Assembly (NCBI GenBank): GCA_951406725.2
Contig: OX597818.1
Coordinates: forward strand, 90,334,001-90,398,000
Origin: Octopus vulgaris
Taxonomy: Eukaryota
Direction: 5' to 3'
Length of the DNA: 64,000 bases
In this document: one piece after another, positions 26,493 through 29,400 of the stretch
Layout of the letters: every line of letters begins with the position of its first letter
Position numbering within the stretch: the stretch's first letter is position 1
The notes under the pieces: generated by a model
Database searches by the model: none
What the model saw: the letters and a program-made list of their open reading frames with translations, nothing else
Told to the model about the DNA's origin: nothing
Made by a program: the position numbers and the translations under genes

Positions 26493-29400
26493 GTGGATTA
26501 ACTGTTGAAGTGGACGGACGTCTATTTGTTTACTACACTTCTTTAACTCCCAAGAAAGAATATATATATTTTCAAAAATCAAAAGGAAAACAAACAAAAG
26601 AAAAACAAACATGACTAACTTGCAGGCCTGCAACAGACGAAATTGGTCTGATAACAAAATTGATGTTTTAATAAACACATGGCTCTCTCTTTCCCAAACA
26701 GAAAATCTAAATGTCTTGTGTTTGAATGAGATTGCCGAAAAAACATCACAAGTGGTCAACACACGATCCGTCAAACAGATTCGTAGCAAGTTGAAACATA
26801 TCGAAGTATCTTTCAAACTGATAAGAGGCCATTATGAAAAGCTTCTACATATTTTCACAGTTCAAGAACAACAACAGCTAGAAAATCAGCAGCCACAACA
26901 ACAACAACAACAGAATGAGCCACTCCTGGTTCCCAGCACAATGGCTGACCCTGACATCGGTCAGGCACAACAACAACAACAACAGCCACAGCAACAAGAA
27001 CAACAACAGCCACTCCTCAACTCTAGCTTACTAGACGATTCACTAAATGCCAGTATCTTTTCACCGCTCTCACAGCAACCACCACAATTATCATCATCAT
27101 CATCACCACCGCTGCCACCATCGTCTTCTATCACCAAAAATACCAACAGAAAACCAAATAAGAAACCACTGCCCTCTTCCCCCACATCACCACCTCAATA
27201 CTACTGCAGTAACAAAAACTTAAAGAAACATAGGAAGCAGAATGCGCCCCCCACGGCACAAACAAGAAATCCCCAAATATGCCGCTATTCACTGCGCCAG
27301 AGACTCTGCACAAATAGTGACTGCATCTTCACGCATCTACCCGGCACTAGACGCACTACCGGCCAAGGCCAAAGCACGCATCCCACAATAACATCAACAC
27401 CACCAAATAGTAAATCGAAATTCAAAACACACACAACTCGGAGTCCCAAAATCTGCCGGTATTCCCAACGTGAGAGAACATGTCTACTGAGTGACTGTCC
27501 CTTCACTCATCTTCCAGGGACCCGACGCACAAACAGAAACGGGGCCTCAAGCCAACACACAAACCTGAATAACAATAAAAATAGAAACACACCATGCTGC
27601 AGTAATGCTGGTCCAGTCTTTTCAGGAAGACACCAAAAACAACAACAACAAAAGAGGAAACTACAACCCTATCCAACAGTGCAACCACACCTCCAGCCAA
27701 AAACTGCTCCCTAAGCAGGAAAATTCTTTTTTAGCCATGTTGAACATGGCAAAAGAGATACACAAAAACATTCTAGCCATCACTCAACACCATCCTATGC
27801 TATTACCCCAGTGCACCAATTCCCCACATTGCTGCCACTAACACACACAAAAAATCCAAGCCCCCTGCAACAGTCAAAACCAGCCACTACACTAACCTCC
27901 ACATTCCTACTCAATGCACAAGGTGTCAGCCCTTCCATCAATGCACAAAAATGGAAGGTCCAATTCATTGAAGACTGGGTTGGTAACCATTCACACCACA
28001 TCCCTTTCTTCATTCTCACTGAGACCCACCTTGACAACTCCCACTTGGAAGCCGAAGTGAGAGTGAAGAATTTCACAACCATCCGCGCGGATCGTATCGG
28101 CAGGAGGAAGGGTGGAACTGCCATTTTCCTGCATGATTCATTTACGGCAGATGGAAATAGTATATTCTCCAACGGCTACTGTGAATCAGTCACCGTGCAC
28201 AACAAAGCCAATGACCTGACAGTAATTGGGCTCTATAGGCCGCCCCAAACACCCATACTGTGCTTTAAAGAATGCCTCAACAGCATTAAGTGCTTTATTC
28301 AACAGTGCCATTCTAGCAACATACTCATGATGGGAGACTTCAATCTACCCTGTGTTGACTGGACTACAAACTGTTTGAAACCAAGCACTCCCGCCTCAAC
28401 CGCTGACAAAGAAGCAGCAGAGTCACTTTTCGACTTTACGAATGAGTTTTTCTTGTCCCAACTTGTCCTTGCACCAACAAGACATCAGAACATTTTGGAC
28501 CTAGTGTTTAGTAACCACACTAACACTATACATAACGTTACAGTGGAAAAAACCCTTCTTTCAGACCATGACATGGTTCTCTGTAACATGAAATTCCACC
28601 AGCCGAAAGCTAATCCTAGTGACCTTCCTCCAGCCCACCCATTTGACAACATGGATCTCCATAAAGCCAACTGGGATGCAATCAGGAACGAGCTATCAAA
28701 TGTTGACTGGTCCTTTACACATACACACATCTCCACCAACCATAAAACATCTTGGCAGATCTTTGTAGACACCGTCACAGACATATGTGCAAAACACTCC
28801 CCACCAAGACCTGTGAACAAAAAGTGCAGAATCCCCAAAACAGAAAAACCATTATCAGAAAAATAAAAAGAACAAACAAAAAAATTAACAAACTAAAGTA
28901 CTGCCAACAGCAACACACACATTCGACGGCTATCGCACTGCTTGAATCCAAAAAATATAACCTCCAACAATGCATGAAGACCCTCATCAATAACCAAAGA
29001 TCAGCTGAGGAGAAGTGGGCCATTGAAAAAATCAAACTCAACCCCAAAGTGTTCTTTTCATTTGCGAGGAAACGCAGGGTCACTGTCTCCACTGTAGGCC
29101 CTCTAATTGACGAAACTGGCACTCTCCAAGATAATGCCAAATCCATGGCCGAGATACTGCAGAAACAATACTGCTCTGTTTTCAGCAATCCTGATATGGC
29201 CGATCTGGGCTGTATCAGTGATGTCAACCCCCAACACACTATATCGGACATAACGTTTAGTGCCCCTGATGTCTTAGCGGCGATAAACGAAATAAAACAC
29301 AATTCAGCAGTAGGCCCCGATAGGTTCCCTGCTTGTGTCCTGAAGGTGTGTCGACACCAACTTGCATCTCCCCTTGCTAATCTGTGGAGAAACTCACTGG

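Follow-up and report, generated by a model that had tools for sequence, protein, structure and literature searches.

A conserved slippery heptamer at the ORF1/ORF2 junction points to -1 frameshifting in an octopus LINE and its relatives

Introduction

The translation of the second open reading frame (ORF2) of LINEs has been called unclear, and the routes given in the available portions of two articles are reinitiation, as in SART1 and L1 (PMC3708506, PMC5009743). The accessible text of one of them also states that the HeT-A gag requires a frameshift, and that L1 is thought to use a novel form of initiation (PMC5009743). Here, we analyze a LINE in a 64,000-nucleotide stretch of Octopus vulgaris DNA (the window), in which the frame of ORF1 carries the heptamer U_UUU_UUA and overlaps a start-less ORF2. 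As far as the available sections of the sources go, SART1 (with its UAAUG motif) and L1 and Zorro3 (with non-overlapping ORFs) share with this element a bicistronic LINE RNA and a low-level route to ORF2 (PMC3708506, PMC1965478). These elements reinitiate at or after the ORF1 stop, whereas the octopus element lacks a stop-start motif, and in this element and its relatives the ORFs overlap by 127-325 nt. In Paramecium non-LTR elements recoding for ORF2 was likewise inferred from consensus sequences, but the part of the report available proposes a +1 frameshift, reinitiation or readthrough and not a -1 heptamer (PMC5405496). According to a figure legend in a review, ORF2 of the Dictyostelium elements TRE5-A and TRE3-A needs a -1 frameshift (PMC5911963). 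These are APE-type non-LTR elements with a -1 shift for ORF2, as we propose for the octopus LINE, but they are amoebozoan, target tRNA genes and carry a C-terminal zinc finger.

Two heptamers discussed below, U_UUU_UUA from HIV and G_GAU_UUU from pea enation mosaic virus (PEMV), are listed as documented shift sites in the available part of one article (PMC5009743). The octopus junction resembles HIV-1 gag-pol, as portrayed in the accessible sections of two sources, in the heptamer, its register and a polymerase gene without an ATG that lies in the -1 frame and overlaps a structural gene (PMC5009743, PMC3458567). Unlike HIV-1, the octopus element is of the non-LTR type, its ORF2 encodes APE and RT, no protease domain was seen, and no conserved stem-loop at a 7-9 nt spacer was found in its family. 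Long-distance frameshift elements have been described for barley yellow dwarf virus, red clover necrotic mosaic virus and PEMV RNA 2, in which, per the text available, the shift-site region pairs with sequence kilobases away near the 3' end (PMC5009743). Our candidate would share this geometry, and G_GAU_UUU is the PEMV site; the viral elements, however, use a loop-loop contact on a stem 6 nt after the site, whereas the octopus candidate is a predicted extended duplex starting at spacer 0 rather than a loop-loop contact. The -1 frameshift is a known mechanism, here proposed for the translation of ORF2 in animal LINEs. Among open-licence papers, with most subscription titles outside this set, we found neither an experimental test nor a cross-family heptamer analysis for an animal LINE. 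Early papers on the CR1 elements of chicken and turtle reportedly raised frameshifting as a possibility.

Results

The heptamer-bearing LINE is 4.4 kb long and lies on the forward strand at ~26.5-30.94 kb of the window, in AT-rich DNA full of microsatellites. Its ORF2 matches the Pfam families PF14529, PF03372 and PF00078, with the APE endonuclease preceding the reverse transcriptase (RT), as in APE-type LINEs of the CR1/L2 group. LINEs of this group end in a short tandem repeat rather than in poly(A), and the forward strand carries two copies of an 8-nt unit at 30922-30937, followed by a microsatellite; similar tails are present in five relatives. We provisionally call the element CR1-like. 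No second copy of its family was found within the 64-kb window. Three more LINE ORF2 pieces with RT are all located on the reverse strand (13071-14984, 17045-18526 and 23082-26110), are 72-79% alike where alignable and have long TA-rich microsatellites between them; the nearest stands head-to-head with the heptamer-bearing LINE. No junction was obtained from these three, the nearest ending ~26 codons before the APE domain and the two farther ones having been scanned for RT only. The heptamer-bearing element is nearly unchanged in 20 of 24 listed runs (X1-X20, 89-92% of its words), and the contigs of four aligned runs, carrying four organism labels, are at least 99% alike. Such near-identity points to a family of very recent age, to closely related species or to mixed-up labels.

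In the window copy, the ATG-initiated ORF1 sits in the ORF2 frame, and a second frame, open from 27569 to 27841 and reading ENSFL, contains the heptamer. The first-pass annotation had recognized this conflict and proposed either an indel between 27569 and 27712 or readthrough of the TAA at 27712-27714. We derived a majority form by aligning contigs of four runs, one per organism label, to positions 27150-29550. In all four runs, a single contig of 2.3-2.5 kb spans the junction; it differs from the window copy by 2-3 substitutions and by three indels common to all four runs, namely a missing base at 27633, where the forward strand of the window carries an extra base, and one additional base each behind 28832 and 29416. 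These indels are within short homopolymers and may represent assembly errors or private mutations of the window copy. No variants are listed between 27656 and 28172 in the contigs of these runs, which drop rare variants. Because the contigs lack one base at 27633, ORF1 here runs into the ENSFLAMLNM frame, ends at the stop at 27839-27841 and overlaps an ATG-less ORF2, which is continuous over 27150-29550 and lies in the -1 frame relative to ORF1, with an overlap of 127 nt. In its majority form, ORF1 thus extends over 26611-27841 of the forward strand (~409 aa by arithmetic from the coordinates), its frame being broken at 27633 in the window copy. Independently of the contigs, the ORF1 relative P0032 contains a CCCH repeat and DNSFLAMLNLAKEI in a single frame. 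The suspected indel is thus found at 27633, and the contigs of the four runs agree on ORFs overlapping in -1 with an ATG-less ORF2.

From its N to its C terminus, ORF1 comprises a Myb/SANT-like start, a Q-rich stretch, two CCCH repeats, Phe-Leu with an amphipathic helix and a P/Q/H tail. The Myb/CCCH module annotated at first does have Pfam counterparts, but both labels are weak, PF13837 (Myb, E=1e-4) and PF22683 (CCCH, E=0.002) each falling under the curated cut-off. A word search returned no ORF1 homologues and HMMER found 10. The Myb/SANT-like start (26611-26890) is common to P0033, P0034 and P0039; metagenome relatives carry a PHD-like domain and three CCCH fingers in the place of this segment, likely the outcome of a domain swap. 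ORF2 (27715-30855, forward strand) consists of a 64-aa linker, the APE endonuclease and the RT. Its frame is closed on the 5' side by the TAA at 27712-27714 on the forward strand, 4 codons before the heptamer. The absence of an ATG ahead of the APE domain holds as originally described, the first one in this frame being located at 28327, within APE and 3' of the motifs LN, LTETHL and YRPP, which by comparison with L1 are presumably catalytic. An ATG-initiated ORF2 would therefore be without half of the nuclease. The forward-strand ORF2 of the window copy is broken behind 28832, behind 29416 and near 30721-30736, the last position lying beyond the contig-aligned stretch 27150-29550.

The heptamer U_UUU_UUA is located at 27727-27733 of the forward strand, and its position and its X XXY YYZ register in the 27569-27841 frame are confirmed. 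TTTTTTA occurs once in 26500-30930 and 12 times on the forward strand of the whole window. A stop in the third frame follows within a few bases of the heptamer in the window (27732-27734) and in most close relatives; it would end -2 slips at once, but its presence may simply follow from a Leu codon with a purine after it.

We compared the junction to those of related elements. An alignment of APE sequences led to 18 metagenome loci, 17 of which are readable at the junction (L002 is lost to a contig edge); APE-pattern scans of viral and genome contigs returned no relatives. All 17 show a -1 overlap of ORF1 with ORF2 over 202-325 nt, with a slippery heptamer near the 5' end of the overlap, at a homologous Phe-Leu that starts a conserved helix in ORF1. 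The heptamer is U_UUU_UUA in 8 loci, G_GAU_UUU in 7 (one codon further back) and G_UUU_UUA, a non-canonical slippery sequence, in 2 (L007 and L011). Collapsing the loci at 80% APE identity gave 12 families including that of the window, with U_UUU_UUA in 7, G_GAU_UUU in 4 and G_UUU_UUA in 1. The four G_GAU_UUU families form one clade (support 97/96), and the switch to this heptamer therefore occurred once. The Phe codon at the site is TTT in 12/12 families, compared with 196 of 469 for the other Phe codons. A slippery context, scored with three classes that were defined after the sites had been seen, is absent from all 48 other Phe-Leu pairs of the 12 families and occurs at 2 of their 469 other Phe codons. 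Synonymous sites are saturated in this set: 4-fold positions are 32% identical and none of 41 invariant APE residues is encoded by a single codon. Judged by these codon comparisons, the heptamer is kept at the nucleotide level beyond the need of the protein.

Across the 12 families, the -1 frame contains 389 stops in 4276 codons upstream of the site and 0 in 892 codons from the site to the ORF1 stop, where synonymous re-coding of ORF1 predicts ~30 (product P ~4e-16, treating the 12 families as independent). It opens 1-16 codons before the Phe codon in 11 of 12 families and 37 codons before it in L014. The heptamer of L017 comes right after a TGA, and its first base is where the frame opens. 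An ORF2-frame ATG ahead of APE is absent in 10 of 12 families, with one in L014 and two in L016. The arrangement expected of a -1 shift signal, a downstream ORF in the -1 frame that is open from the site, closed just upstream and startless, is thus found here. A weak search for natural single-ORF fusions of ORF1 and ORF2 returned none.

More distant LINEs were collected in an RT scan of genome contigs, which gave 80 loci (L019-L098) of LINE-type RTs in prokaryote assemblies, mostly MAGs; their presence in prokaryote bins is probably due to contamination by eukaryotic hosts. An APE match is found in 52 of them and a readable junction in 42. Five further distant loci from a viral RT scan (24-29% identity) were left out of the counts. 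An upstream frame of at least 150 aa overlapping in -1 is present at 10 loci, representing 9 families. Seven of these families contain a canonical in-register heptamer (U_UUU_UUA three times, A_AAA_AAC twice, U_UUA_AAC and U_UUU_UUG once each), with ~1.2 families expected in a calculation by hand and a background of 14 in-register heptamers in 2577 codons; L022 and L026 have none. Another five loci (L032, L036, L040, L045 and L060), whose -1 frames measure 80-141 aa, are below the 150-aa threshold and do not enter these counts.

Not all distant LINEs share the -1 layout: at seven loci, a single stop separates ORF1 from an in-frame ORF2, and five show a +1 overlap. The one-stop loci (L020, L023, L029, L033, L034, L042 and L049) have upstream frames of 205-421 aa and mostly no ATG before APE; five of the seven carry a stop followed by GA (TAG/TAA, then GAT/GAC). 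They possibly form a readthrough group, judging from these frames. In the +1 loci (L028, L035, L041, L047 and L085), the upstream frames measure 241-431 aa. In the tree, L035 groups as the sister of L038, a family with U_UUA_AAC, so that junction type may switch quickly. Motifs resembling 2A peptides (DxExNPGP or close) precede a PHD-like stretch and APE in L043, L070, L082, L093 and L097, an arrangement already described for LINEs in the available part of an earlier study (PMC3708506).

The forward-strand sequence right after the heptamer (27734-27751) is predicted to form a short hairpin, a longer local stem or a pairing with the element's 3' end. The hairpin GCCATGT-TGA-ACATGGC at 27734-27750, highlighted in the first-pass annotation, is present, as is the alternative partner GCCAT at 27776-27780, and the hairpin has a z of -3.2 when folded alone. 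In context, its predicted pair probability is 0.15, versus 0.84 for a longer stem-loop predicted at 27738-27790 of the forward strand (spacer 4-5 nt, ~-11 kcal/mol, z ~-2), which is not conserved. We rejected the zero-spacer hairpin as a stimulator, as it is a minor predicted fold and not conserved in relatives. No conserved stem-loop at a 5-9 nt spacer was found in 15 folded loci, z values of -2 or below being restricted to the window and L018 and many loci having positive z. Local folding of the distant junctions revealed no conserved stimulator, and the only Rfam match is to a microsatellite, with none at the heptamer site. Of the two features suggested at first for a check in relatives, a slippery heptamer is present at the homologous site in 17/17 readable loci, and no strong local stem common to the folded relatives was found.

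A forward-strand segment of the 3' UTR (30878-30898) is complementary to 27734-27751, with 17 pairs including G-U, one mismatch and one 3-nt bulge. The predicted duplex (-19.7 kcal/mol) tops 149 other windows of the element, and 27734-27751 is predicted to pair with the 3' end better than ~99% of 362 other 20-nt queries. About half of the predicted energy is gone when the first 3 nt are blocked, and the 30878-30898 partner is mostly paired in the predicted 3' fold. Among 11 full-length elements, the best partner falls in the 3' zone in 4, 3 and 3 for three query lengths, with 0.48 expected; an offset-query control gave 3/11 versus 21/264 (p=0.05). No 3'-end pairing was found in L007, L010, L051 and L090. 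In cross-family swaps of site and 3' end, the site of the window's element is predicted to pair best with its own 3' end whichever of the four query lengths is used, and the others are inconsistent. Across families, the modeled long-range pairing is only suggestive. In the portion of a study available to us, antisense oligonucleotides stimulate a -1 shift on the U6A heptamer with optimal spacers of 0 and 3 nt, compared with 7-9 nt for a pseudoknot, and a zero-spacer long-range duplex is plausible for this reason (PMC3458567). Candidate stimulators are pairing with the 3' end of the same element and a weak local stem, or the heptamer may act without any stimulator.

Discussion

Programmed -1 frameshifting on U_UUU_UUA, yielding an ORF1-ORF2 fusion, is in our view very probable on the comparative evidence; the contigs, P0032 and the cross-family conservation all support it. 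A readthrough product of the TAA at 27712, with ORF1 and ORF2 in one frame, is how the window's own copy reads, and a long ORF1 separated from ORF2 by a single stop in the same frame is indeed present at seven distant LINE loci. This frame, however, hangs on the extra base at 27633 that is absent in 4/4 runs, and in P0032 and each of the 17 close relatives ORF1 continues through the Phe-Leu. As the majority-form ORF1 departs from the frame at 27633, readthrough is needless; it is an artefact of the window copy, and we give this route practically no chance. ORF2 could instead be started by AUG-independent reinitiation or near-cognate internal initiation, with Phe-Leu kept only as a protein motif, and it does begin a conserved helix. 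All 12 families have CTG, GTG, TTG, ATT or ATC codons ahead of APE in the frame of ORF2, and such a start has been proposed for mammalian L1, whose ORF2 tolerates loss of its AUG according to the accessible part of one report (PMC1965478). We regard this as improbable: the near-cognate codons share no common position across families, L017 has no room for a start before the site, and neither the fixed TTT codon amid saturated synonymous sites nor the 0 versus ~30 expected stops between the site and the ORF1 stop would be accounted for. No ORF2-frame ATG lies in 27690-27960 either, so that a SART1-type UAAUG stop-start is lacking.

The U-run followed by AG might alternatively be a 3' splice site or spliced-leader acceptor that joins upstream sequence to the ORF2 frame. 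TTTTTTAG, the heptamer followed by G, is present in the window, L013, L014, L016 and L018 (5 of 7 U6A families), most other relatives have an AG within ~10 nt of the T-run, and splicing would likewise keep the downstream frame open. Yet the phase of the nearby AG differs between the U6A group and the G_GAU_UUU group, L005, L010 and L007 have no adjacent AG, the GGA conserved ahead of the T-run is no feature of acceptors, and a spliced leader alone would still require an ATG. The contigs, whose RNA status is a guess, contain no joint, and none of the 20 loose ends listed (of 27) is at 27735. We judge splicing decidedly improbable. Slippage of RNA polymerase on the T-run, adding a base so that some transcripts have ORF1 and ORF2 in frame, would fit the six-T run in 7 of 12 families, but the G_GAU_UUU families have four T only, a fixed codon register would not be required, and the contigs reveal no run-length variant, though they drop rare variants. 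This possibility appears highly improbable to us.

For programmed -1 frameshifting, we infer the following course of events. A minority of the ribosomes reading ORF1 would slip back by one base at 27727-27733 and enter the start-less ORF2, generating an ORF1-linker-APE-RT fusion of roughly 1,400 aa. The fusion would keep ~374 aa of ORF1 and lose its C-terminal helix and tail, and ORF1 protein would be expected in large excess over the enzyme. A more specific and tentative proposal, which we consider doubtful at present, is that an animal LINE clade makes a Gag-Pol-like RT fusion by a -1 shift triggered by its own 3' end pairing behind the heptamer. Here, the 3' end would act as a built-in antisense oligonucleotide directly after the slippery site. 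If so, enzyme would be made only from full-length RNAs with an intact 3' end, tying its synthesis to template integrity, and reverse transcription from the 3' end would shut synthesis off.

Our comparisons make a case that a clade of animal LINEs uses a -1 frameshift of the retroviral type, and the 7-nt site they define can be tested with a single synonymous mutation. If the frameshift is true, the active enzyme of these LINEs would be an ORF1-ORF2 fusion that brings along zinc fingers of its own, it would be an error to annotate ORF2 as starting at an internal Met, and such LINEs would be exposed to host controls on frameshifting.
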